A DNA stretch of 64,000 nt, taken from NCBI GenBank assembly GCA_001790855.1, contig MGDH01000022.1:7116-71115 (forward strand), given 5' to 3'. A program made the translations under genes and the position numbers. Shown piece by piece: positions 26,086 to 60,201 of the stretch. Numbering within the stretch: the first letter of the stretch is position 1; each line of letters begins with the position of its first letter. The notes under the pieces are model-generated. The model did no database searches, was not told the origin of the DNA, and was given only the letters and a program-made list of their open reading frames with translations. Source of the stretch: Candidatus Schekmanbacteria bacterium RIFCSPLOWO2_02_FULL_38_14 (GTDB taxonomy: Bacteria; Schekmanbacteria; GWA2-38-11).

Positions 26086-27285
26086 TTATAATTTTTTAAG
26101 ATTTAGTATTCTGTCAAAAATCTTCTCTGCAACTTCTTCTTTTGAGAGTTTTGGCAGGTCTTTAATTTTTCCATTTCTGTCTATAAGCTTGACAATGTTT
26201 GTGTCAGAATTAAAACCTGCACCATTCTGAGTTACATCATTTGCAACTATGAGGTCGCAGTTTTTTTCTTTAAGTTTTTTCTGGGCGTTTTTTATAAGGT
26301 TTTCAGTTTCTGCGGCAAAGCCCACAAGAATCCTTTTTCCTTTTTTCTTTCCCACCTCAAGCAATATGTCAGGAGTTTTTTCAAGTTTCAGGGTAACAGA
26401 TTCTTTCTCATCTTTTTTAATTTTGGCGTAAGATTCTTTTTTGGGTTTGAAATCAGAAACAGCAGCAGCTTTGATTATCATAGTGGATTCCGGGAGATTC
26501 TTGAGAACTGCTTCTCTCATTTGCGAAGCAGACAGAACATTTATTATTTTTGCACCGGGAGGGAAGGGAATACCGGTCGGAGCGCTTACCAGGGTTACAT
26601 CTGCCCCCCGGGCTAAAGCTACCTTAGCAAGAGCATAACCCATTTTCCCGCTTGAGCGGTTAGTGATATATCTTACAGGATCAATTGCCTCCTGAGTTCC
26701 TCCTGCAGTAATTAATATTTTTTCTCCCTTGAGGTCTGATTTCTGAAGCAAAGTTTTTTTTACTTTTTCAATTATCAATGAAACTTCAGCTAATTTTCCT
26801 ATACCCTCATCTCCACACGCAAGCTCGCCTGTCTGCGGCTCAATAAATTCAACTCCAAGGGATGATAGTTTTTTTATATTTTCTTTTGTTGTATGATGCA
26901 GATACATATTTGAGTTCATGGCAGGGGCAATTAGTATTTTTCCTCTAAATGCTAAATAAAAAGTTGAAAGAAAATCATCAGCTATGCCGCTAGCAAACTT
27001 TGCAATAATATTGGCTGTTGCAGGGACCACAAGGAGGAGGTCAGTTTCTTTTGCGAGGTTTATATGGCAGACATCAAACTCTGACGGAAGATCAAACTGC
27101 CCACTTATTACCCCGTTTTTTGTAAGAGTCTGTAGGGTTAAAGGAGTTATGAACTCACAAGCATTTTTTGTCATAATTGCAGTGACTGAAACTCCTGCTT
27201 TTCTTAATTCTCTTACAATTTCGCAAGCCTTGTAAGCAGCAATTCCGCCTGTTATTCCGAGAACTATATTTTTACCCTTAAGCAC
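26086..27285 (-). CDS. coaBC: Bifunctional phosphopantothenoylcysteine decarboxylase / phosphopantothenate-cysteine ligase
   Basis: N-terminal flavoprotein MLKGKNIVLGITGGIAAYKACEIVRELRKAGVSV plus a C-terminal CoaB ligase domain. Length is 399 aa. Confidence 0.85.
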   Translation of the reverse strand: MLKGKNIVLGITGGIAAYKACEIVRELRKAGVSVTAIMTKNACEFITPLTLQTLTKNGVISGQFDLPSEFDVCHINLAKETDLLLVVPATANIIAKFASGIADDFLSTFYLAFRGKILIAPAMNSNMYLHHTTKENIKKLSSLGVEFIEPQTGELACGDEGIGKLAEVSLIIEKVKKTLLQKSDLKGEKILITAGGTQEAIDPVRYITNRSSGKMGYALAKVALARGADVTLVSAPTGIPFPPGAKIINVLSASQMREAVLKNLPESTMIIKAAAVSDFKPKKESYAKIKKDEKESVTLKLEKTPDILLEVGKKKGKRILVGFAAETENLIKNAQKKLKEKNCDLIVANDVTQNGAGFNSDTNIVKLIDRNGKIKDLPKLSKEEVAEKIFDRILNLKKL

Positions 27286-27331: not shown

Positions 27332-27438
27332 TGTCATTGCGAGCGATAGCGAAGCAATCTCGGTTTTTAGCTATTAGCTGATAGCTGTCAGTATTGTAAT
27401 GAGATTGCTTCGTCGCTAAATAGCTCCTCGCAATGACA
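27332..27438. repeat. Palindromic repeat element, copy 1 (about 107 bp; arms GTCATTGCGAG...CGAAGCAATCTC)
   Basis: Left arm TGTCATTGCGAGCGATAGCGAAGCAATCTC and right arm GAGATTGCTTCGTCGCTAAATAGCTCCTCGCAATGACA are inverted complements. The central loop holds GCTGATAGCTGTCAG. A second copy lies at 50507..50623. Confidence 0.7.
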
Positions 27439-27467
27439 AAGACTTTTTTCAACAGCCTGTTAAAGCT

Positions 27468-27493
27468 GTTTAGGATTTCGAATTTAGAATTTT
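27468..27493. repeat. AT-rich interspersed repeat GTTTAGGATTTCGAATTTAG, copy
   Basis: Identical 20-mer at 45696. Related copies at 52004 and, in reverse complement, at 49435. Confidence 0.6.
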
Positions 27494-27497
27494 CCCC

Positions 27498-27995
27498 CTA
27501 CTCAACCACAATCAGTGTGTCTCCTGCATTTACAACAACCCCTTCTTCAACTGCTATCTCTTTTACTACACCTTTACTTGACGACTTAAGCTCGTTTTCC
27601 ATCTTCATTGCCTCAACTACGATCATTCCTGCCCCGGACTCAACTTCTTCTCCTTCTTTTACCAGTATCTTAACGATTTTTCCTGGCATAGGAGCCTTGA
27701 TAACCTGTTTTCCGCTTTCGGGTTCCTTTTTTTTCTGAGCCATCCGCCTTGTTGCTTCATCAAACACTTCAATTTCAAAGCTTTCACCACTTATATCAAC
27801 TATGTATTTATTTTCCTCGCTTTTAATATTGGAAAGATATGATTTGTTTGACACAATAAGGGAGTAGAGTTCCTTTTTAAAAAGAGTAGCATCAACATCA
27901 AATTCTTCACCGTCAATCTTTATAAGAAAAGACTTCTCTTTTCTTTCAATTTCAACAGAATATTCTTTATTCCCTACTAAAATGTCAAAAATCAT
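27498..27995 (-). CDS. Biotin carboxyl carrier protein (biotinyl domain protein)
   Basis: C-terminus IKAPMPGKIVKILVKEGEEVESGAGMIVVEAMKMENELKSSSKGVVKEI carries the EAMKM biotinylation motif. Start is placed at Met 27995 (MIFDILVG) to avoid a 113-nt overlap with the upstream biotin carboxylase gene. The start is uncertain. Confidence 0.6.
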   Translation of the reverse strand: MIFDILVGNKEYSVEIERKEKSFLIKIDGEEFDVDATLFKKELYSLIVSNKSYLSNIKSEENKYIVDISGESFEIEVFDEATRRMAQKKKEPESGKQVIKAPMPGKIVKILVKEGEEVESGAGMIVVEAMKMENELKSSSKGVVKEIAVEEGVVVNAGDTLIVVE

Positions 27996-28008
27996 TTTTA
28001 TGTTTTTT

Positions 28009-29514
28009 TTAGAGCCTGCTTCCCCACATCTGCCATTTGCCAGCAACTTTCCAGTGGTTTTTGGGCTGGTGACTCTGGTCATGGAAAAGCGATTCCTTTT
28101 CAGCCTTTTTGAATGATTCAATAACAGCAGTGAGAATGGCTATTTTGAGAGCCTCGTCTGAAGGGAAAGAAGAGGGTTCAATTCTTTTTGCTATAAAATT
28201 CGTATCAATATCACCTTCTATAAAATGTTTATTTGATATTACCTTTTTCAAGAAAGGTATTGTTGTTTTAATTCCTGTTATTGAATACTCATTTAAAGCC
28301 CTTAACATTCTCATTCGCGCTTCTTCTCTGTCTTTTCCCCATACAACAAGTTTTGAAATCAAAGGGTCATAGTGGACTGAGATATTGCATCCTTCATAAG
28401 CACTTGAATCATATCTGATTCCGTAACCTCCGGGACTACGCAGAGTTCTTATTATGCCGGGGGACGGAAGAAAATTTTTTTCAGGGTCTTCTGCGTAAAT
28501 TCTGCATTCCATTGCACAGCCATTTCTTTTAATCTTATCCTGTGTAAGTTTCAGCTTTTCTCCTGAAGCAATTCTTATCTGTTCTCTAACAATATCTATT
28601 CCTGTTACTATTTCAGTTATGGCATGTTCCACCTGAAGACGGGTGTTCATTTCAAGAAAGTAAAAATTATTCTTTTTATCTACAAGGAATTCAACCGTGC
28701 CTGCATTGGTATAGTTAACTGCTTTGACTGCCTTTAGTGCAGCAATTCCCATCCTCTCTCTGAGCTTATCATCCACAACAGTAGAAGGTGTTTCTTCGAT
28801 TATCTTCTGATGTCTTCTCTGGATTGAGCATTCTCTCTCAAAGAGATGGACACTGTTTCCATGCTTATCTGCCAATACCTGAATTTCAATATGTCTCGGG
28901 TTTTCAAGATATTTTTCAACATAGACAGAGGAATTCCCAAAAGCGGCACCTGCTTCTGAACGTGCAGCACGCACGCTTGATTTCAACTCGTTTTCTGTAT
29001 GAACAATTCTCATCCCTTTTCCGCCGCCACCGGCAGCAGCCTTAATCATTATTGGAAATCCTATCTCCTTGGCTATTTTAAAAACCTCATCATCATTCTC
29101 AATGCTTTCAGTTGTTCCTGGAAGGATAGGGATGCCAGCTTCAGCCATTATTTTTCTGGCTGTTGTTTTGTTTCCCATTTTTTCAATAACGTCAGATGAA
29201 GGACCAATAAAGGTTATTTTTTCTTTTTCACACTCTTGAGCAAACCTTGAATTTTCTGAAAGAAAACCATAGCCGGGATGGATTGCATCTGCTCCGCTTT
29301 CTTTTGCAACAGAGATGATTTTATCTATGTTAAGATAGCTTTTGATTGAAGCAGCTTCACCAATACAGTAGGCTTCATCAGCGAGACCTACGTGAAGGGA
29401 ATTTCTGTCGGGTTTAGAATAAACTGCAACTGTAGGGATGTTTAAATCCTGACAGGCGCGGATTATCCTTATGGCAATTTCGCCACGATTAGAAATTAAG
29501 ATTTTTTTAAACAT
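28009..29514 (-). CDS. Biotin carboxylase (AccC/PycA-like, with about 50-aa C-terminal extension)
   Basis: MFKKILISNRGEIAIRIIRAC...ADAIHPGYGFLSEN... and an ATP-grasp core. The protein is about 500 aa, longer than the canonical 450-aa AccC. No carboxyltransferase gene is adjacent. Confidence 0.85.
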   Translation of the reverse strand: MFKKILISNRGEIAIRIIRACQDLNIPTVAVYSKPDRNSLHVGLADEAYCIGEAASIKSYLNIDKIISVAKESGADAIHPGYGFLSENSRFAQECEKEKITFIGPSSDVIEKMGNKTTARKIMAEAGIPILPGTTESIENDDEVFKIAKEIGFPIMIKAAAGGGGKGMRIVHTENELKSSVRAARSEAGAAFGNSSVYVEKYLENPRHIEIQVLADKHGNSVHLFERECSIQRRHQKIIEETPSTVVDDKLRERMGIAALKAVKAVNYTNAGTVEFLVDKKNNFYFLEMNTRLQVEHAITEIVTGIDIVREQIRIASGEKLKLTQDKIKRNGCAMECRIYAEDPEKNFLPSPGIIRTLRSPGGYGIRYDSSAYEGCNISVHYDPLISKLVVWGKDREEARMRMLRALNEYSITGIKTTIPFLKKVISNKHFIEGDIDTNFIAKRIEPSSFPSDEALKIAILTAVIESFKKAEKESLFHDQSHQPKNHWKVAGKWQMWGSRL

Positions 29515-45589: not shown

Positions 45590-45730
45590 TTATGTTTAAG
45601 TTCCAAATTCTAATATCTAAATCCTAAACAAATTCCAAATTCTAATCACCTAAATTCAAAACAAATTTGAAGATTTGAATTTTGGATTTAGATATTGTTT
45701 AGGATTTCGAATTTAGGATTTAATCCCACT
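45590..45730. repeat. AT-rich palindromic intergenic repeat cluster (GTTTAGGATTTCGAATTTAGGATTT and its complement)
   Basis: Left part TTCCAAATTCTAATATCTAAATCCTAAACAA and right part GATATTGTTTAGGATTTCGAATTTAGGATTT are mutual reverse complements. Family members occur at 27468, 47394-47500, 49430-49571 and 51975-52040. Confidence 0.6.
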
Positions 45731-46637: not shown

Positions 46638-47393
46638 TTATCCCTGTTGTACGAGCTTTTTTACTTTTTCAACAACATCCTTACTTTCTGAAAATCCTTT
46701 TGGACATTCAACAACGCATTCAGATGGCTTTTCGCATTTAAGGATTCCAAGTTCCCTTAACTCATGGATTCTTGCATCTCTTGTTGCATCTCTTGCATCA
46801 AGGATGAACCTATATGATTTTACAATGCTGGCTGGGCTTAAAAAAGAGCTGTCCTTATCGAGTACCATACAATCTGAATGGCATACAGCACAAAGTGTGC
46901 ACTGGGAGATCTTTGTGAGAGTATTGAAATCATCAGAATAATTAACCCTGAATTCACCTGATTCCGGAATTTTTGAAAAATCCTTTACAAGCCATGGCTT
47001 TGCTTTTTTCAAATTTTCTATGAAGGGTTCAAGGTCAACAACGAGGTCTTTAATGAGATTAAAATGCTTTAATGGCTCAATTACTATTACCCCGTTTTTA
47101 GGGAGTATGTCCTTTGCCTGAGTATTACAGGCGAGCATTGCCTTTCCATTAATGCGGACTGCGCAGGAACCACAGATGGCGCTTCTGCATGAACGTCTAA
47201 AGGTCAGTGTTCCATCAATTGTTTCTTTTATCTTAATCAGGGTATCAAGAACAGTCTCTCCGCCGGTGATTTTAATCTTGTAGTTTTTAAAATGTGGTTT
47301 GGGGTCTGTATCCTTATTGAACCTCTGGATTTCAAGGGTGATTTGTTTGTCCTTCATTTTTGCTCCTTTAGTAATTATAAGTTTAAATGACAA
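46638..47393 (-). CDS. sdhB: Succinate dehydrogenase / fumarate reductase iron-sulfur subunit
   Basis: 2Fe-2S motif FRRSCRSAICGSCAVRINGKAMLAC, then CxxCxxC...CP cluster motifs. Length is 251 aa. Confidence 0.85.
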   Translation of the reverse strand: MSFKLIITKGAKMKDKQITLEIQRFNKDTDPKPHFKNYKIKITGGETVLDTLIKIKETIDGTLTFRRSCRSAICGSCAVRINGKAMLACNTQAKDILPKNGVIVIEPLKHFNLIKDLVVDLEPFIENLKKAKPWLVKDFSKIPESGEFRVNYSDDFNTLTKISQCTLCAVCHSDCMVLDKDSSFLSPASIVKSYRFILDARDATRDARIHELRELGILKCEKPSECVVECPKGFSESKDVVEKVKKLVQQG

Positions 47394-47500
47394 AATCCAA
47401 ATTTCAAATCAATAACAAAATCCAAATGTTAAAAGTTTTAATCATTGGAGCTTTGAATTTCATTTGAACTTTGAGATTTAGCATTTGTCATTAGCTTGTC
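47394..47500. repeat. AT-rich intergenic repeat (AAAATCCAAAT / GAATTT units) between frdA and frdB
   Basis: AAAATCCAAATTTCAAATCAATAACAAAATCCAAAT...TTTGAATTTCATTTGAACTTTGAGATTTAG shares ATCCAAAT/GAATTT unit motifs with the 45590, 49430 and 51975 repeats. Confidence 0.45.
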
Positions 47501-49177
47501 TTAATAAACCCTTTTCTGTGGCTGATACTTTGTTACAGACACTGGCTCGTAGGAAATATTTATTTTTCCATCCTTGCCTTTTTTTGCGATAGTATGCTTC
47601 ATCCAGTTTTTGTCATTTCTTTCAGTATAGTCATTCCTGTAATGTGCTCCTCTGCTTTCCTTCCTGTTCAGGGCACCAAGGGCTATAATCTCAGAAATCG
47701 TAAGAAGGAACTCCATCTCAATGACTGAAGTGAGCTGTGTATTGTAAACAGTGCCTTTGTCCTGGATAAAAACTTTTTTTGCCCTTTCCTGAAGTTTCTT
47801 TATTTCTTTAAGAGCCTGTTCTATTTCATTACCGACTCTAAAGACCCCTACTTTGAATGTAAGAATTTCTGAAAGTTCTTTTCTTATTGCAGAGGATGAT
47901 TCTTTTCCTTTACGGTCAACAAGCTTCTTTATCCTTTTCTCTTCATCTTTTAGAATATTTTCGCTTATCTTGGAAAACTCAGCGGATGATACAAATTTTT
48001 CTAAATTTCTTCCGACTCTTCTGCCAAAAACAACTGTCTCAAGAAGTGAATTTCCTCCAAGCCTGTTGGCTCCGTGGACACTTACGCAGCCACACTCTCC
48101 AACCGCATACAGCCCTTTTATGTTTGTTTCTCCGTTAACATTATTCCTGATTCCGCCCATGGAATAGTGCTGTGCGGGTTGAACAGGCATTGGTTCTTTA
48201 ACTATGTCAACACCTGCAAATTTCTTTGCAAGCTCTTTTACCTGAGGGATCTTTTCATTTATTTTTGCTTCACCAAAGTGAGTTACATCGAGGTGAACAT
48301 ATTCATTCTCAAATCCTCTTCCTTCTCTTACCTCTATTTGTATACACCGAGAAACAACGTCTCTTGGGGCAAGTTCCATTTTTGATGGAACATATCTTTC
48401 CATAAACCTCTCATCTTTGTTGTTTTTAAGATATCCGCCTTCACCCCTTACACCTTCTGATACGAGAATGTTGGTTCCAAAAAGAGTTGTTGGGTGGAAC
48501 TGGACAAATTCCATATCAGCAAGAGGTGTTCCTATCTCATAGGCAAGAGCCATTCCATCACCGGTATTTATATGAGCATTGGTAGTTCGAGCAAAGGCTC
48601 TCCCATATCCCCCTGTTGCTAAGACTATTGCCTTTGTTTTCAAGAGTTCAAAATTACCTTTTTGCATATTATAGCAAATAGCACCTTTGCAGACCCCATC
48701 TTCTGCGATCAATTTGGTGACAAATCGTTCATTATAGATTTTTACATTGCTCTTAAGAAGTTGTTCATAGAGGAGGTGAAGAAGGGTATGACCTGTTAAG
48801 TCTCCAAAAAAACAAGCTCGAGGAAAGCTTGCGCCTCCTAGCTCTCTCTGGGCAATCTTTCCATCCTCAGTCCTGCTAAAGATTGCTCCCATGTGCTCTA
48901 TTTCGTAGATGTTTTCAGGGGCTTCCTTAATGAGAATCTCAATGGCGTTCTGGTCACCAAGATAATCGCCTCCCTTTACAGTATCAAAAATATGGCTTTC
49001 AAGAGTATCTTCAGGGTTAAGTACTGCATTGATTCCTCCCTGCGCTGCACCTGAATGGGAGCGTGTGGGATAGACTTTTGAAATAATTCCTACGTTGGCA
49101 TATTTAGATGCTTCTATTGCAGCCCTCATTCCTGCAATTCCTGCGCCGACTATGACTATGTCGTGGTAAATCATCAA
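47501..49177 (-). CDS. sdhA: Succinate dehydrogenase / fumarate reductase flavoprotein subunit
   Basis: FAD-binding [13 protein letters not shown]. The covalent-FAD histidine context [13 protein letters not shown] is present. Catalytic ...HYSMGGI... region. Length is 558 aa. Confidence 0.9.
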
Positions 49178-49193
49178 TTAATCTCCCTTCTTA

Positions 49194-49406
49194 TTAATAT
49201 AGTCTTACTATTTCTATTGCATCAACAGGACATTTTTCAAGGCAGAGATTGCACAGAGTGCATTCGTCTTCATTTGCCTCAACAGAGATTATGGTGTTAT
49301 CTTTCTTGTCAAAAATATTCACAGGACATATTTTGACACATTCACCACAGTCCTTGAATCCGCGGCATGTTTTCTGGTTGATTTTTATGTTTATGAAAAT
49401 ACTCAT
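49194..49406 (-). CDS. 2x[4Fe-4S] dicluster ferredoxin (70 aa)
   Basis: CRGFKDCGECVKICP and CTLCNLCLEKCP are two CxxCxxCxxxCP motifs. It lies 16 nt upstream of frdA on the same strand. Confidence 0.75.
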   Translation of the reverse strand: MSIFINIKINQKTCRGFKDCGECVKICPVNIFDKKDNTIISVEANEDECTLCNLCLEKCPVDAIEIVRLY

Positions 49407-49429
49407 CCTTTTCTCCCTCTGTGTATGAG

Positions 49430-49571
49430 TTATAAATCCTAAATTCTAATATCTAAATTCCCTGCCTGTCGGCAGACAGGTAAACAATATCAAAATTCCA
49501 ATTTTTAAAACTGTTTTGGATTTTGGTCATTTGAATTTGTTTAGAATTTAGAGCTTAGGCTTTAGAATTTT
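49430..49571. repeat. AT-rich intergenic repeat cluster plus GC hairpin CCTGTC-GGCA-GACAGG
   Basis: TAAATCCTAAATTCTAATATCTAAATTCC is the reverse complement of the 45696-type repeat. TTTGTTTAGAATTTAGAGCTTAGGCTTTAGAATTTT is a forward copy. A GC hairpin lies at 49461..49480. Confidence 0.55.
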
Positions 49572-50468
49572 TTATGATACATTCTTTCTAATAAGCTCTA
49601 TTATCTCAGAAAATTTTTCTGCAACAAGGATTCCTGCATCCCTGAATTTTTCTATTTTGCCTTTTGTACTTCCTCTATTTCCTTCAACAATTGCTGCTGC
49701 GTGGCCAAAACGGATACCCGGCATCTCATCAGCGAATCTTCCTGCAACAAATGCGATTATTGGAAGTTTGATTTTGTTTTCCTTTACAAACTCTGCAAGA
49801 AGTTCTTCTGCTGTACCTCCGGGTTCGCAGAAGATTACGATTGCCTTTGTCTGGTTGTCTTTCTGGAAAAGTGGAACGAGGTCAAGGTAGTTTGAACCGA
49901 CAATTGCATCTCCTCCAACGCTAATGCAGGTGCTCTGTCCGATTCCGTTTAATGTCAGGAGGTTGGCAATCTCTGTTGTCATTCCTCCGCTTCTTGAGAT
50001 TATTCCTATATTCCCTTCACTGTAAGCCTTCTTTACATCATCAACTCTTCCGCCAACCATTCCAATTTTGGTCTTGTGAGGCGATATTATTCCAAGGGAG
50101 TTTGGTCCTATTACTGTTGCGCCTTTTTCTCTTGCAAAAGCAACTATCTCAACTACATCCTTTCTTGGAACTCGTTCTGTTACAATGACAACAAGTTTAA
50201 TGCCATTATCAATCGCCTCAAGGCTTGCACCTTTTACCATTCCGGGCGGAACTGATATTATGCTTGCTTCAGCAGGGTGTACGGTTATTGCTTCTTTTAC
50301 TGTATCATAGACAGGGACACCGTAAACATCCCATCCGCCCTTGCCGGGAGTTATTCCTGCAACAACTTTTGAGCCGTAATCAAGTAAATCCCTCGTAAAA
50401 GTGGTTGCCTCTCTGCCGGTAATTCCCTGAATGATTATCCTTGTATTTTCATCAGCCAAGATTGACAT
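49572..50468 (-). CDS. sucD: Succinate--CoA ligase [ADP-forming] alpha subunit
   Basis: The CoA-binding N-terminus RIIIQGITGREATTF and the SRSGGMTTE segment are present. The expected phosphohistidine loop around GHAAAI is present. Length is 298 aa. Confidence 0.9.
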   Translation of the reverse strand: MSILADENTRIIIQGITGREATTFTRDLLDYGSKVVAGITPGKGGWDVYGVPVYDTVKEAITVHPAEASIISVPPGMVKGASLEAIDNGIKLVVIVTERVPRKDVVEIVAFAREKGATVIGPNSLGIISPHKTKIGMVGGRVDDVKKAYSEGNIGIISRSGGMTTEIANLLTLNGIGQSTCISVGGDAIVGSNYLDLVPLFQKDNQTKAIVIFCEPGGTAEELLAEFVKENKIKLPIIAFVAGRFADEMPGIRFGHAAAIVEGNRGSTKGKIEKFRDAGILVAEKFSEIIELIRKNVS

Positions 50469-50506
50469 CTCATTCTCCTTAATTTATCTCTTGAACTTTA
50501 TTTTTT

Positions 50507-50623
50507 GTCATTGCGAGCGACCAACGGGAGCGTGGCAATCTCATCTTTTACTTGGGAATGTTGTAACATGTTACTATAATTACTGAATTGAGATTGCTTC
50601 GTCGCTTTGCTCCTCGCAATGAC
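50507..50623. repeat. Palindromic repeat element, copy 2, inserted between sucC and sucD
   Basis: Arms TGTCATTGCGAGCGA...GGCAATCTC and GAGATTGCTTCGTCGCTTTGCTCCTCGCAATGAC match copy 1 at 27332..27438. It occupies most of the 182-bp sucC-sucD spacer. Confidence 0.7.
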
Positions 50624-50650
50624 TTTTTAAAACTGTTCACTAATCACTGT

Positions 50651-51829
50651 TCACTTACTCGCTCTCTCAACAGCCATTCTTGCGGCTTCATCTATTGAAA
50701 CGGTTCTGTCGCAGTATGGCACACCATATTTCTTCAATATTCTGAACCCTTCATCCTCCCAAGCGCCTGGAATTCTGAAAACGGTTATGGTTTCTGAAGG
50801 AACCTTGCCGCTTTCAATTACGCCTTTAACTACTCCTCTTGCTACCAGGTCAACTCTGGTGTTGCTGACTACATTCATTATGACTGCAATTTTATTGATT
50901 CCTGGCTTTGAAAGGATGTGCTTGACAAGTTCTTTAACTTTGAAAACAGAAGGGTTCCCTCCAATCTCACAGTAATTGGCAGGTTTGCCGCCATATTTTT
51001 TTATTGCGTCAAATGATGTCAGGCTCGCTCCACCGCCGCCAATCAGAAGACCGAGATTCCCGTCAAATTCAATCATTCTTCCTGCAACTCCACGATGGTC
51101 CATTTTGTCAATTTCCGCTGCCTTTTTCTCAAATTCTGTCTGCTTCTTTGACTGGCTTTCCCTTTCACCAAATTCTGCGACAAGACTCTTTTGGCGGTAG
51201 AGGGCATCGTCATCAATCTCAATATGTCCATCAAGGGCTATGAATTTCCCGTCCTTTGTTTTTCCAAGAGGGTTTATTTCAGCAAGGGTTGCATCATATT
51301 TCAGAAATACCTGAACGAGCCTGTAAAGAACCGATGAAATCTGGAGCAGGTCATTTCCATTTATTCCTGCCTGCGCGACCATTTCTCTTGCATGGTGTTC
51401 CTGAAACCCCTCAATGATGTTAAAACTTTTTCTTACAATTTTTTCAGGATTGGTTTTTGCCAGTTCTTCGATATCAACCCCGCCTTCAGTGCAGAAAATT
51501 ACAACGGGGAGTTTTCTTGTAGTGTCGTAGGTTGCAGCCATAAAGAGCTCTTTTTCAAGAGCTATCTGGTCTTCAACAAGAAGCTTTGAAACAAGGTGGT
51601 TCTTAATAGTGCTTCCGAGAAGCTGCTTTCCTTTATCTTTGGCTTCTTTTAAATCTTTTGAGAAAAGAACACCGCCTGCTTTTCCTCTGCCGCCTGTTGG
51701 TATCTGTGCTTTGATTACAGAAGGAGTTTCCGCCTTGATTTCATCAACAGACGAGACTACCTGCCCTTTGGGTGCCGGAATGTTGTTTGCCTGAAAAATT
51801 TTTTTACTTTCAAATTCATAAAGTCGCAT
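50651..51829 (-). CDS. sucC: Succinate--CoA ligase [ADP-forming] beta subunit
   Basis: MRLYEFESKKIF...IPAPKG ATP-grasp N-terminus. C-terminal ligase-CoA domain ...NPLG...GGGA.... Length is 392 aa. Confidence 0.9.
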   Translation of the reverse strand: MRLYEFESKKIFQANNIPAPKGQVVSSVDEIKAETPSVIKAQIPTGGRGKAGGVLFSKDLKEAKDKGKQLLGSTIKNHLVSKLLVEDQIALEKELFMAATYDTTRKLPVVIFCTEGGVDIEELAKTNPEKIVRKSFNIIEGFQEHHAREMVAQAGINGNDLLQISSVLYRLVQVFLKYDATLAEINPLGKTKDGKFIALDGHIEIDDDALYRQKSLVAEFGERESQSKKQTEFEKKAAEIDKMDHRGVAGRMIEFDGNLGLLIGGGGASLTSFDAIKKYGGKPANYCEIGGNPSVFKVKELVKHILSKPGINKIAVIMNVVSNTRVDLVARGVVKGVIESGKVPSETITVFRIPGAWEDEGFRILKKYGVPYCDRTVSIDEAARMAVERASK

Positions 51830-51926
51830 TTTCTAACTCCCAAAATATGCTTTGCTTTTAAGCTCAAGTTTATATAAAAATCGTGGCTTTCATATTGATA
51901 TTTGCTCTATTTGTCAAGGCAAAAAA

Positions 51927-52040
51927 CGAAGCAATCTTTTTAAAAAGCTGACAGCAGACAGCTATCAGCTTTGAGCATTTGGAATTTGAATAATTTAGAT
52001 ATTGTTTAGGATTTAGGATTTTGAATTTAGAAATTAATAT
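51927..52040. repeat. Partial palindromic-element fragment (CGAAGCAATCT + GCTGACAGCAGACAGCTATCAGC) followed by AT-rich GTTTAGGATTT repeat copy
   Basis: It shares CGAAGCAATCT and the GCTGATAGCTGTC motif with copy 1. It is followed by GATATTGTTTAGGATTTAGGATTTTGAATTTAG. Confidence 0.5.
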
Positions 52041-52043
52041 CTA

Positions 52044-53018
52044 CTAACTTGCCAACAACCTTGCTGCTTCCTTTGCAAAATATGTGATTATCATATCTGC
52101 GCCTGCGCGTTTGATTGATAGGAGGCTTTCCATCATGATTCGTTTCTCATCTATCCATCCGAGTTTACCGCCTGCTTTTATCATGGAGTATTCACCGCTT
52201 ACCTGAAAGGCTGCAAGAGGGATATTGAACTGCTGTTTAGCCCTGTAGATTATATCAAGATAGGGAAGGGCAGGTTTTACCATTACAATGTCAGCGCCTT
52301 CCTCTATGTCCTGAGCTATTTCTCTTATTGTCTCATCAGAGTTTGCAGGGTCTATCTGGTGAGATTTTCTGTCTCCAAATTCTGGCCTTGATTCTGCTGC
52401 TTCCCTGAAAGGAGCATAAAAAGATGATGCGTATTTTGCTGCATATGACATTATTGATATATCTTCAAAACCGTTTTCATCAAGAATTTTTCTGATTGCT
52501 TTCACTCTTCCATCCATCATATCTGATGGGGCAACAATATCAGCGCCTGCTTCAGCGTGGCTTAAGGAAATTTTTGTCAAAGTATCTATTGTCGCGTCAT
52601 TATCAATTTTTCCTTTTTTAATCACTCCGCAGTGGCCATGGTTTGTGTATTCACACAGACAGATATCAGTGATTACAATAAGTTCAGGAATGTTGTTTTT
52701 AATCCTTCTGATTGCCTTTTGAATTATTCCATCCTTTGTATAGGCTTCTGAGCCAAACTCATCCTTTTTCTTAGGAATTCCAAACAGGATTATTGCGGGG
52801 ATGTTTAATTTACTGACTTCCTTTGCTTCTTTAAGGAGGTTGTCAATTGACAACTGAAAGCATCCGGGCATCGACTTAATTCCATTCCTGACATTTTTCC
52901 CTTCGCAGACAAAAACCGGGCATATAAGGTTGTCAGTTGAAAGCCTTGTTTCTCTGACCATCCTTCTTATATTTTCATTCCTTCTAAGCCGACGCAAACG
53001 GTGAGTTGGGTAAGACAT
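52044..53018 (-). CDS. hemB: Porphobilinogen synthase (delta-aminolevulinic acid dehydratase)
   Basis: Active-site region ...[19 protein letters not shown]-like ([18 protein letters not shown]). The metal-binding Cys-rich segment [14 protein letters not shown] is present. Length is 324 aa. Confidence 0.9.
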
Positions 53019-56507: not shown

Positions 56508-57641
56508 ATGTATGAACTTACAGAAGAACAGAAGATGCTCAAAGAACTTGCAAGACAGATTGCCGAGGAAGAAATAAAACCTATCAGGGCAGAGCTTGAT
56601 AATACAGGAGAGTTCCCTTATAAAGTAGTAAAGGCTCTTGTTGACGCTGACCTTATGGGTTTGTTTATTCCAACTGAATATGGCGGTTCAGCCCAGGGAA
56701 CTTTTGAGATGTGTCTTGTTATGGAAGAGCTTTCAAAGGCGTGCGGAGGAATAGCCCTTTGCTATGGCGCAACAGCCCTTGGAACTTATCCAATACTTCT
56801 TTTTGGCAGCGAGGAGCAGAAAAAAAAATATCTTCCAAGGATTGTAAAGGGGGAGCTTGCTGCATTTGCTCTTACAGAGGCTGAAGCAGGAAGCGATGCG
56901 GGTGGTGTCAGGCTGAAGGCTGAAGCTGGTGGCGATTATTATGTTCTTAACGGCGTAAAGCAGTGGATAACCAACGGAGGGGTTGCAGAAATCTACACAG
57001 TAATTGCTGCAACCAATAAAGCAAGGGGAAGCCGAGGGCTGTCAGGATTCATAGTTGAAAAGAATACACCCGGCTTTACTTTCGGGAACAAGGCAGACAA
57101 GATGGGCATAAGGGCTTCAATAACAAGCGAGCTTGTTTTTGAGGATTGCCACGTACCAAAGGCTAATATGCTTGGGAAAGAGGGAATGGGTTTTCCTGTT
57201 GCAATAAAAACCCTTGATAAGGCAAGGCCCGGTGTTGCAGCGCAGGCGCTTGGAATTGCGCAGGGAGCCCTTGATGAAGCTGTTGCATATTCAAAGACAA
57301 GGGTTCAGTTTGGGAAAGCAATCTCAACCTTTCAGACAATTCAGGTTATGCTTGCAGATATGGCAACAAAAACTGAGGCTGCAAGGGCGCTTGTTTACTC
57401 AGTGGCAAAATATATTGACAGCGGAGCTTCTGACATTTCAAAAGAATCCGCAATGTGCAAGCTCTATGCCTCTGATGTTGCAATGGAGGTAACAACTGAT
57501 GCTGTGCAGATTCTTGGCGGATACGGATATATGAGGGATTACCCTGTTGAAAAGATGATGCGTGATGCAAAGATAACCCAAATCTATGAAGGCACAAACC
57601 AGATTCAGAGGCTTGTAATTGCGAACAGGCTGCTGAGGTAA
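56508..57641 (+). CDS. Acyl-CoA dehydrogenase (short/medium-chain, butyryl-CoA dehydrogenase-like)
   Basis: MYELTEEQKMLKELARQIAEEEIKPIRAELD...GGSAQGTFE...ALTEAEAGSDAGG...QIYEGTNQIQRLVIA match the full ACAD signature. Length is 377 aa. Confidence 0.85.
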   Translation: MYELTEEQKMLKELARQIAEEEIKPIRAELDNTGEFPYKVVKALVDADLMGLFIPTEYGGSAQGTFEMCLVMEELSKACGGIALCYGATALGTYPILLFGSEEQKKKYLPRIVKGELAAFALTEAEAGSDAGGVRLKAEAGGDYYVLNGVKQWITNGGVAEIYTVIAATNKARGSRGLSGFIVEKNTPGFTFGNKADKMGIRASITSELVFEDCHVPKANMLGKEGMGFPVAIKTLDKARPGVAAQALGIAQGALDEAVAYSKTRVQFGKAISTFQTIQVMLADMATKTEAARALVYSVAKYIDSGASDISKESAMCKLYASDVAMEVTTDAVQILGGYGYMRDYPVEKMMRDAKITQIYEGTNQIQRLVIANRLLR

Positions 57642-57803
57642 ATAGCTGTCAGCATTCAGCTATCAGATGTCAGTTTCCCATCAATAGTATTTTTTCATTG
57701 TCAATCAATAAACAGAATGGTATTATTTCCTTATTAAAGTTTGCATTGCTTAATTCACTTTCATTCAGACAAGTCCTTATTTAAGCAAAATCTGGATAAA
57801 AAT

Positions 57804-60154: not shown

Positions 60155-60201
60155 AAATCCCCCCTACCCCCCTTTGTTAAAGGGGGGATTTGGGGGGATT
60201 T
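60155..60201. repeat. Strong G6/C6 inverted repeat AAATCCCCCC-TA-CCCCCCTT...AAGGGGGG-ATTT-GGGGGGATTT between the AOR gene and the moaD-like gene
   Basis: Read directly. Two C6 runs face two G6 runs about 10 nt away, giving a stem of at least 20 bp with an internal loop. It lies inside the aor-moaD intercistronic spacer. Confidence 0.55.

Follow-up and report, generated by a model that had tools for sequence, protein, structure and literature searches.

The DNA analysed here, hereafter called the window, is a stretch of 64,000 nt from contig MGDH01000022.1 of Candidatus Schekmanbacteria bacterium RIFCSPLOWO2_02_FULL_38_14, in which two minus-strand genes resembling those of the succinyl-CoA synthetase (SCS) subunits are separated by a palindromic repeat element. 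The upstream gene, sucC-like (50651-51829, with its TGA stop codon at 50653-50651), encodes a beta subunit of 392 amino acids belonging to the ADP-forming SCS family, and the downstream gene, sucD-like (49572-50468), encodes an alpha subunit of 298 amino acids that displays the GHAAA motif of the phosphohistidine loop. The intercistronic spacer, on the same strand, measures 182 bp (50469-50650), 64% of which is taken up by a palindrome of 117 nt (50507-50623, no strand assigned). In silico analyses indicate that this palindrome is probably an inverted dimer of units of the repetitive extragenic palindromic (REP) type, with the layout of the CGTC-tagged REP superfamily, and that it represents a tolerated insertion which would be co-transcribed with the two genes and read through by the polymerase. 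The first-pass annotation of this DNA had placed a copy of a palindromic element (copy 2) in the spacer, at coordinates that proved exact, and a second full copy (copy 1) occurs in the window at 27333-27437.

The spacer cannot be shortened by choosing another start for sucD because an in-frame TAA is found just 5' of its ATG. The start codon is preceded, at a distance of 6 nt, by a strong Shine-Dalgarno sequence that was read directly from the DNA (AAGGAG, 50475-50480, minus strand). The sucD-like protein matches the Pfam domains CoA_binding and Ligase_CoA and the sucC-like protein matches ATP-grasp_2 and Citrate_bind, its C-terminal half corresponding to Citrate_bind and not to Ligase_CoA. 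Both have full-length matches to NCBIfam models with scores under the cut-offs (290 bits for a cut-off of 375 for the sucC-like protein with sucCoAbeta, and 301 bits for 353 for the sucD-like protein). Among solved structures, the beta subunit scores slightly better with the Thermus SCS (3ufx_B, 195 bits) than with the Hydrogenobacter citryl-CoA synthetase (6hxq_B, 182 bits), and the alpha subunit clearly better with SCS alpha (278 bits) than with the citryl-CoA synthetase subunit CcsB (214 bits). By these comparisons the pair is assigned to the SCS family and corresponds probably to sucCD, citryl-CoA synthetase being the less likely identity. Citrate_bind is the citrate-binding domain of ATP-citrate lyase; the substrate of the enzyme may be succinate or citrate and the pathway may likewise run in either direction. 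The gene order on the minus strand is hemB, sucC-like, sucD-like, ferredoxin (70 amino acids, 2x[4Fe-4S]), frdA/sdhA and frdB/sdhB. Region 46638-53018 groups the SCS-like pair with the ferredoxin and with the flavoprotein and Fe-S subunits of a fumarate reductase/succinate dehydrogenase, adjoining haem-synthesis genes, and the pair also adjoins a ferredoxin in both relatives at 69-71% identity that were looked at.

The dimer of the spacer reads GTCATTGCGAGCGACCAACGGGAGCGTGGCAATCTC - 47 nt - GAGATTGCTTCGTCGCTTTGCTCCTCGCAATGAC, in which arms of 36 and 34 nt enclose the 47-nt centre, with unpaired GTC tags at the outer ends (TGTC and AGTC when the preceding base is included). The first unit (50507-50542, plus strand) is organized as (T)GTC-ATTGC-GAG-[CGACC AAC GGGAG]-CGTG-GCAAT-CTC and forms one row in the alignment of units with a 17-nt inner part, whose inner helix covaries (see below). 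The second unit (50590-50623, minus strand) is organized as (A)GTC-ATTGC-GAG-[GAGC AAA GCGA]-CGAA-GCAAT-CTC. The central segment (50543-50589, 47 nt, no strand) is not conserved between copies, and the one match to a promoter in the gap falls within it. Copy 1 (105 nt, no strand) is located between accB (27498-28121) and coaBC (26086-27285), both on the minus strand, and its 39-nt centre is unrelated to that of copy 2. A remnant of a unit, ACGAAGCAATCTT (51926-51938, plus strand), of which the outer half is missing, was detected in the hemB-sucC spacer. The core GAGATTGCYWCG occurs five times in the window for 0.62 occurrences expected, a number that none of 100 shuffles reached.

When folded as sense RNA, copy 2 gives one long imperfect hairpin of -39.6 kcal/mol, compared with -19.7 kcal/mol for shuffles (z -6.9), and the whole spacer reaches -42.5 kcal/mol (z -3.8). 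Single units taken from the window and folded with DNA parameters were no better than shuffles (z ca. 0); the evidence for a hairpin in each unit is therefore comparative, coming from covariation, and not thermodynamic. None of the Rfam 15 covariance models matched the whole 64-kb window at the gathering score, and searches of the gap and of a canonical copy at permissive E-values returned only sub-threshold matches to generic hairpins or miRNA.

The sucC-sucD junction in homologous loci

Homologous loci were fetched via homologous proteins and by a metagenome scan, and their sucC-sucD gaps were surveyed. In the 73 loci having 48-71% SucC identity, gaps have a median length of 1 bp, with the two genes overlapping by 1 or 4 bp in 33 cases, which bears out the earlier statement that they are usually adjacent or overlapping. 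In 72 of the 73 loci, the gap does not exceed 90 bp. Among them, the three nearest (64-71% identity), one of which is a Candidatus Schekmanbacteria metagenome-assembled genome (MAG) that represents the closest named relative (71% SucC identity), are devoid of repeats in their gaps, which measure 42, 43 and 47 bp. Relatives whose gap is short keep sucC-sucD-fdx in this order and tightly packed, suggesting a single transcription unit. A different situation is found at 84% SucC identity and above, where all seven loci, the window included, have long gaps of 121-485 bp that contain four different dispersed fillers. The sucC-sucD spacing of the window is abnormally long.

In the window, the 182-bp gap contains the REP dimer. 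This dimer is absent from L003 (92% SucC identity), whose gap of 172 bp is filled by an AT-rich palindromic repeat. Three loci with ca. 85% identity (L002, L125 and L129) have a 121-bp gap with a GC-rich hairpin, cccccctttagcaaagggggg. In L124 (84%), the gap extends to 485 bp and harbours, between inverted TGCAAAATG-type repeats, an intact gene of 120 amino acids belonging to the 23S rRNA intervening-sequence protein (IVP) family, while a decayed copy of the same cassette is found in the 452-bp gap of L001 (86%). L124 and L125 encode an identical SucC protein (P0004) and yet have unlike fillers, with the cassette in the former and without it in the latter. All fillers occupy the same A/T-rich middle of the gap, and the sequences that flank them can still be aligned between loci.

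Because different dispersed repeats fill it in close relatives, the junction would be a hot spot or a site where landing is permitted. More precisely, the dimer, or an earlier element whose place it took, would have landed in the A/T-rich stretch of a sucC-sucD spacer that was once short (ca. 45 bp) and that, in this lineage, would be permissive for several kinds of small repeats. Several comparisons point to such an insertion: spacers of 42-47 bp at 64-71% identity are opposed to spacers of 121-485 bp with four fillers at 84% or more, unlike fillers occur next to identical SucC sequences in L124 and L125, and the other fillers are dispersed repeats that the window contains as well. As judged from these alignments, the dimer is not a conserved part of the sucD expression apparatus. 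A role of the element as a device for sucD, which the first-pass annotation implied, is correspondingly weakened, the 92% relative having a different repeat at this position, the 84-86% relatives a GC-rich hairpin or an IVP cassette, and the 64-71% relatives a short spacer devoid of any repeat.

Outside the dimer, the motif GTGAACAG occurs twice, 14 nt apart, at 50633-50654, overlapping the sucC stop codon and lying just past it. A similar doubled motif is present in L002 and a single one in L003.

A dispersed family of tagged repeat units

Genomes were searched with a pattern built from both arms, which required the exact 11+8-nt core and allowed centres of 20-50 nt. Among the matches listed, which are those referred to throughout, the same dimer architecture with the exact core is found in more than 120 genome contigs. 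Isolates are represented by Chloroflexus islandicus, Sphingopyxis, Porticoccus, Chryseobacterium, Pedobacter and Mucilaginibacter sp. SMC90 (complete genome). MAGs belong to Dehalococcoidia, Anaerolineae, Patescibacteria, Alpha- and Gammaproteobacteria, Desulfobacterota, Atribacterota and Elusimicrobia, and further ones to Hydrogenedentes, Planctomycetes, Cyanobacteria, Nitrospirae and Clostridiales, together with one Halobacteria MAG; Chloroflexota and Bacteroidota are also named among these matches. Examples of dimers in the set L004-L123 are L012 4852-4971, L079 723-814, and L009 3703-3793 and 5977-6067. An identical 11+8-nt core is shared, among the matches listed, by many bacterial phyla including Patescibacteria, by at least one archaeal MAG and by a Mu-like phage.

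In the 61 complete exact-core dimers collected from other genomes, centres have unrelated sequences and lengths of 20-50 nt, which is the range of the pattern, and the conserved unit is the arm rather than the whole palindrome. Each unit is composed of an unpaired YGTC tag, a 5-bp stem (ATTGC/GCAAT), an internal loop in which GAG lies opposite CGAA, CGTG or CGCG, a variable inner hairpin and a CTC tail, and two units face each other, tags outward, across the non-conserved centre. Of 250 units, 133 carry TGTC and 95 carry CGTC next to ATTGC on its 5' side (228 together), the first of these four bases lying outside the search pattern. The 3-nt tail is CTC in 237 of the 250 units and CCA in 2, being mostly fixed by the pattern, and the ATTGC/GCAAT pairing, found in all units, was a requirement of the regular expression with which they were gathered. 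Support for the inner helix comes from 26 distinct units of equal length, in which changes on both sides occur in five of five pairs, with a covariation score of 0.304 compared with 0.092 for shuffles (0/500 as high) and 0.05-0.14 for slid registers. The variable inner hairpin has 1-10 bp, with 30 distinct inner stems of at least 4 bp, and its loop is mostly a 3-nt GNA (GAA, GCA and GTA being the commonest) closed by C-G, which corresponds to the very stable DNA mini-hairpin of the d(GCGNAGC) type. Unlike inner hairpins are frequent in the two arms of one dimer.

The location of the dimers was deduced from crude calls of open reading frames (ORFs), taken as the longest stop-to-stop frame nearby, from which the strand statistics given below also derive. 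By these calls, the flanking ORFs are co-directional for 33 dimers, convergent for 14 and divergent for 5. About one third of them are found within 17 nt of the end of the upstream ORF (33-39 co-directional dimers, from L004-L230 and the window). The flanks of the 61 complete dimers show only a richness in pyrimidines on the left side and in purines on the right side.

The element was also observed in 22 viral contigs. One contig of a Mu-like transposable phage (IMGVR_UViG_3300022552_000049, 17,977 bp; L221 and L223; see also L210) carries six dimers between genes in 18 kb, and its gene content includes an rve/MuA-type transposase, a MuB-like ATPase, Gam, GemA, portal, baseplate and terminase. 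A Mu-like phage is a possible vehicle for the spread of the element between hosts. The GenBank plasmid and phage collections yielded few and partial matches, in Methylosinus and Methylocystis plasmids and in two unannotated phage records.

Di Nocera, De Gregorio and Rocco (2013, BMC Genomics 14:522, PMC3733652) describe CGTC-tagged REPs as having an unpaired CGTC tag with the variants TGTC and CCTC, a continuous stem of 8-9 bp that starts with A-T and T-A pairs, a loop of 4-5 nt and a 3-nt tail with the consensus CCA. According to these authors, the CGTC-tagged REPs comprise four families reported from five phyla, occur mostly as inverted dimers with spacers of 20-100 bp, with heterodimers being frequent, are situated between co-directional and convergent ORFs, and form a class with no linked or known transposase; some are equated with dRS3 of Neisseria and with RPE-4/RPE-6 of Rickettsia, and bulged variants may have been missed by the search. 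When set against that description, the units analysed here share the YGTC tag, the A-T/T-A start of the stem, the arrangement as inverted (hetero)dimers, the lack of an associated transposase, the occurrence in several phyla and the pattern of location relative to ORFs (33 co-directional, 14 convergent and 5 divergent). They differ from it in that a stem of 5 bp is followed by a conserved internal loop and a variable hairpin instead of being continuous, that loops are mostly of 3 nt, that the tail, likewise of 3 nt but mostly fixed by the pattern, reads CTC and not CCA, and that they extend well beyond the five phyla mentioned there, with occurrences that include Patescibacteria, Chloroflexota, Bacteroidota, Atribacterota and one Halobacteria MAG. 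The core string was not found in the supplements of that paper, and a full-text literature search with sequence strings of the element returned unrelated primers only.

With regard to position, the element resembles the REP sequences and bacterial interspersed mosaic elements (BIME) of E. coli and Salmonella operons, which are transcribed palindromes between cistrons (Higgins et al. 1982, cited in PMC12306157) and whose hairpins are thought, in E. coli, to modulate the decay of flanking mRNA segments (PMC12306157). Both are dispersed palindromes situated between two cistrons of one operon. The sequences themselves are unrelated, and E. coli REPs differ by their GTAG tag and by their dedicated enzyme, the REP-associated tyrosine transposase (RAYT/TnpA-REP). 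The mobile unit is apparently an inverted REP doublet that can be folded into one hairpin, as in the REPINs mobilized by RAYT (Bertels and Rainey 2011; PMC6006769), and as in these no target-site duplication is visible; the tag, however, is YGTC here, whereas RAYT-linked REPs carry a 5' GT[AG]G tag (Quentin et al. 2018, PMC6006769). A canonical REPIN was rejected on account of this tag and because no RAYT-like gene was found in the window or at ca. 124 loci.

Bacterial MITEs (miniature transposable elements with inverted repeats), such as Correia/NEMIS, ERIC and RUP, are non-coding elements of ca. 100-150 bp with terminal inverted repeats that are often co-transcribed in operons, some of them being cut by RNase III or carrying parts of promoters; MITEs are derivatives of insertion sequences and give rise to duplications of the target site. 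The dimer is similar in size, in being non-coding, in its inverted ends and in its location in operons, but its conserved part is a structured hairpin unit and not a terminal repeat bound by a transposase. No recurrent direct repeat was seen by eye in the flanks of the 61 dimers, and a MITE derived from an insertion sequence was rejected because of this lack of target-site duplication. A kink-turn was considered for the GAG/CGAA internal loop and rejected, by reasoning only, because of its unsuitable strand layout. The element is a known kind of interspersed repeat in a known kind of place.

Genes that might accompany the element were searched at its loci. Clustering of 2,692 ORFs from 120 of them revealed no enriched family, the top clusters corresponding to housekeeping genes present in at most seven loci. 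No RAYT-like gene was detected in the window and ca. 124 loci by tblastn with an approximate E. coli RayT query (nothing below E = 0.27), and no Y1/HUH gene was found next to the element in the flanks of ca. 140 loci. Among the Y1/HUH enzymes, subclasses 2.1 and 2.3 are those for which no REP is known (PMC6006769). The genes located between paired copies in L009 and L086 encode glycosyltransferases, GreA and products of unknown function. The family would probably spread as a single-stranded DNA hairpin via some mobilizing enzyme. A broader proposal, to be taken as tentative, is that the YGTC-ATTGC unit defines one widely dispersed family moved as single-stranded DNA by such an enzyme and, linked to this, that in this lineage, where four unrelated hairpin-forming elements occupy the junction in seven loci, a structured sucC-sucD spacer is selected, for instance because it uncouples translation or mRNA decay.

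Probable transcription through the dimer and competing explanations

The sequence 3' of the hairpin on the sense strand is AAAAAATAAAG, which contains an A-run rather than a U-run. The terminator scan of the gap reported nothing, and a T-rich tract follows the dimer on the sense strand in 1 of 39 dimers located between co-directional ORFs (3 of 39 on the antisense strand). A Rho-independent terminator was rejected on the basis of these three observations. Since the hairpin has no U-tract on this strand, the dimer is most likely co-transcribed in the sucC-sucD mRNA, with the RNA polymerase transcribing through it. The first-pass annotation had left sucD expression to depend either on read-through of a strong hairpin or on a promoter inside the element; of these, read-through is the option predicted here, as it fits the sequence better in view of the A-run, of the rarity of T-rich tails and of the AAGGAG motif proper to sucD.

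Following read-through, sucD would be translated independently of sucC, from its own AAGGAG located 38 nt downstream of the dimer. In the mRNA, the dimer would form a hairpin of ca. -40 kcal/mol which, if it behaved like REPs between cistrons in E. coli, could delay 3'-exonucleases or be a site for a double-strand RNase, and could thereby change how stable the sucC and sucD segments are relative to each other. The dimer may in this way alter mRNA decay. Any effect of the hairpin on expression is probably small, because the enzyme requires its two subunits jointly and very different fillers are tolerated in close relatives.

Several points weigh against regarding the dimer as a tolerated insertion of the CGTC superfamily that is simply read through. 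None of the seven loci with at least 84% SucC identity has an empty site, and some structured spacer could be selected and not merely tolerated. The promoter scan, which found no sense-strand promoter in the gap, relies on an E. coli-type consensus that may not be that of the host, and inspection by eye reveals a -35-like ATGACA (5/6) at the end of the element with TAAATT 19 nt downstream, that is a possible weak outward promoter. Long hairpins can also pause or terminate the polymerase without a canonical U-tract, or do so via Rho. As for the class assignment, the interrupted stem and the CTC tail deviate from the CGTC families as published (stems of 8-9 bp, loops of 4-5 nt and CCA tails), and membership of the superfamily was set by the prose description of that paper, so that the units may represent one of its four families or a fifth.

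Among other explanations, it is unlikely that the dimer serves as a transcriptional attenuator or terminator which lowers sucD, fdx and frdAB relative to sucC or makes the downstream genes require a promoter of their own. Its hairpin is very stable (-39.6 kcal/mol, z -6.9), E. coli REP hairpins are described in PMC12306157 as transcriptional attenuators and decay barriers, and Di Nocera et al. state that read-through of REPs between co-directional ORFs "may be limited" (PMC3733652). These arguments are opposed by the A-run that replaces a U-tract 3' of the hairpin, by the T-rich tail seen in only 1 of 39 comparable family members and by the entirely different fillers that relatives have at the same site. 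Furthermore, both subunits are required together and termination would deprive the enzyme of its alpha subunit, and the scan revealed no promoter-like site for sucD on the sense strand.

It is rather improbable that the element acts on the other strand or as DNA, for instance by stopping antisense transcription into sucC or through a cruciform or topological effect, any influence on sucD being incidental. The antisense RNA is the more stable one in both copies of the window (-44.9 compared with -39.6 kcal/mol for copy 2, and -51.7 compared with -44.3 kcal/mol for copy 1) and, on that strand, the hairpin of copy 2 is followed by TTTTT. The same trend is seen in 33 co-directional members of the family, whose antisense fold is on average ca. 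2 kcal/mol more stable (21 versus 12; Wilcoxon p 0.007); in addition, 18 of the 23 dimers with unlike arms have the longer one in first position on the sense strand, and most inner loops are triloops of the GNA type with a closing C-G pair. These statistics are drawn from crude ORF calls and the effects are modest and unreplicated, T-rich tails are also rare on the antisense strand (3/39), and the asymmetry might just as well result from selection against mRNA hairpins that are too stable, or from a strand-biased insertion during replication.

An internal promoter by which the element would drive sucD and the downstream ferredoxin and fumarate-reductase genes is very improbable, and this option of the first-pass annotation is not supported. 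The gap has a single sigma-70-like match, TTGGGA-17-TATAAT (50552-50580, 10/12), which lies on the plus strand, antisense to sucD, in the centre of the dimer, a segment that is conserved neither between the two copies nor among family members; the sense-strand scan was empty. The ATGACA terminus would provide 5/6 of a -35 box and TAAATT occurs downstream of it, but their spacing of 19 nt exceeds the customary 16-18 nt. A promoter function has been suggested for some REPs and MITEs (PMC3733652). The 92% relative is entirely without the element. Finally, a chance feature or an assembly artefact can practically be dismissed, as two full copies occur in the window, the arms match an exact-core family present in more than 120 contigs among the matches listed, isolates included, and the inner helix covaries.

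Repeats in other spacers and significance of the junction

The alternative fillers of the close relatives are dispersed repeats as well, and are found in this lineage. A GC-rich hairpin repeat, aaatcccccctacccccctttgttaaaggggggatttgggggg, occurs in the window at 60155-60199; the same family fills the gap of the ca. 85% relatives (L002 5183-5303) and is also present at L002 3912-3930. An AT-rich palindromic family, TTTAGGATTT.GAATTTAG and its complement, was detected in the window at 27457-27493, 45596-45721, 47385-47409, 49441-49564 and 51993-52037, where it occupies the hemB-sucC, sucD-fdx and frdA-frdB spacers and one near 45.6 kb. A related AT-rich sequence constitutes the gap filler of L003 (L003 1478-1649), a piece of which recurs at 47385-47409 of the window.

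The IVP gene (PF05635) with its inverted TGCAAAATG-type flanks behaves like a small mobile cassette and was found at L124 1666-2028 and at L001 5217-5579 and 903-1265. In L001, it is thus present, in a decayed form, in the sucC-sucD gap and again elsewhere, and its flanks recur within that locus. A third short repeat, AGCTGTCAGC...AGCTATCAGCT, occurs in the window in the centre of dimer copy 1 (27369-27393), beside the remnant REP unit upstream of sucC (51941-51975) and after an acyl-CoA dehydrogenase gene (57639-57673). The spacers of the window are mosaics of several repeat families.

The element accounts for the odd spacing of sucC and sucD and would be of little consequence at this locus. 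For annotation, short ORFs predicted across repeats of this kind are likely to be spurious. The conserved junction of a two-subunit operon, which carries four alternative elements in close relatives and none in distant ones, offers a clean natural experiment that may be used to measure the effects of intercistronic palindromes on operon expression. As for the family, its core, nearly identical over phyla far apart, and its occurrence in a transposable phage would provide a handle for finding the mobilizing enzyme by co-occurrence.

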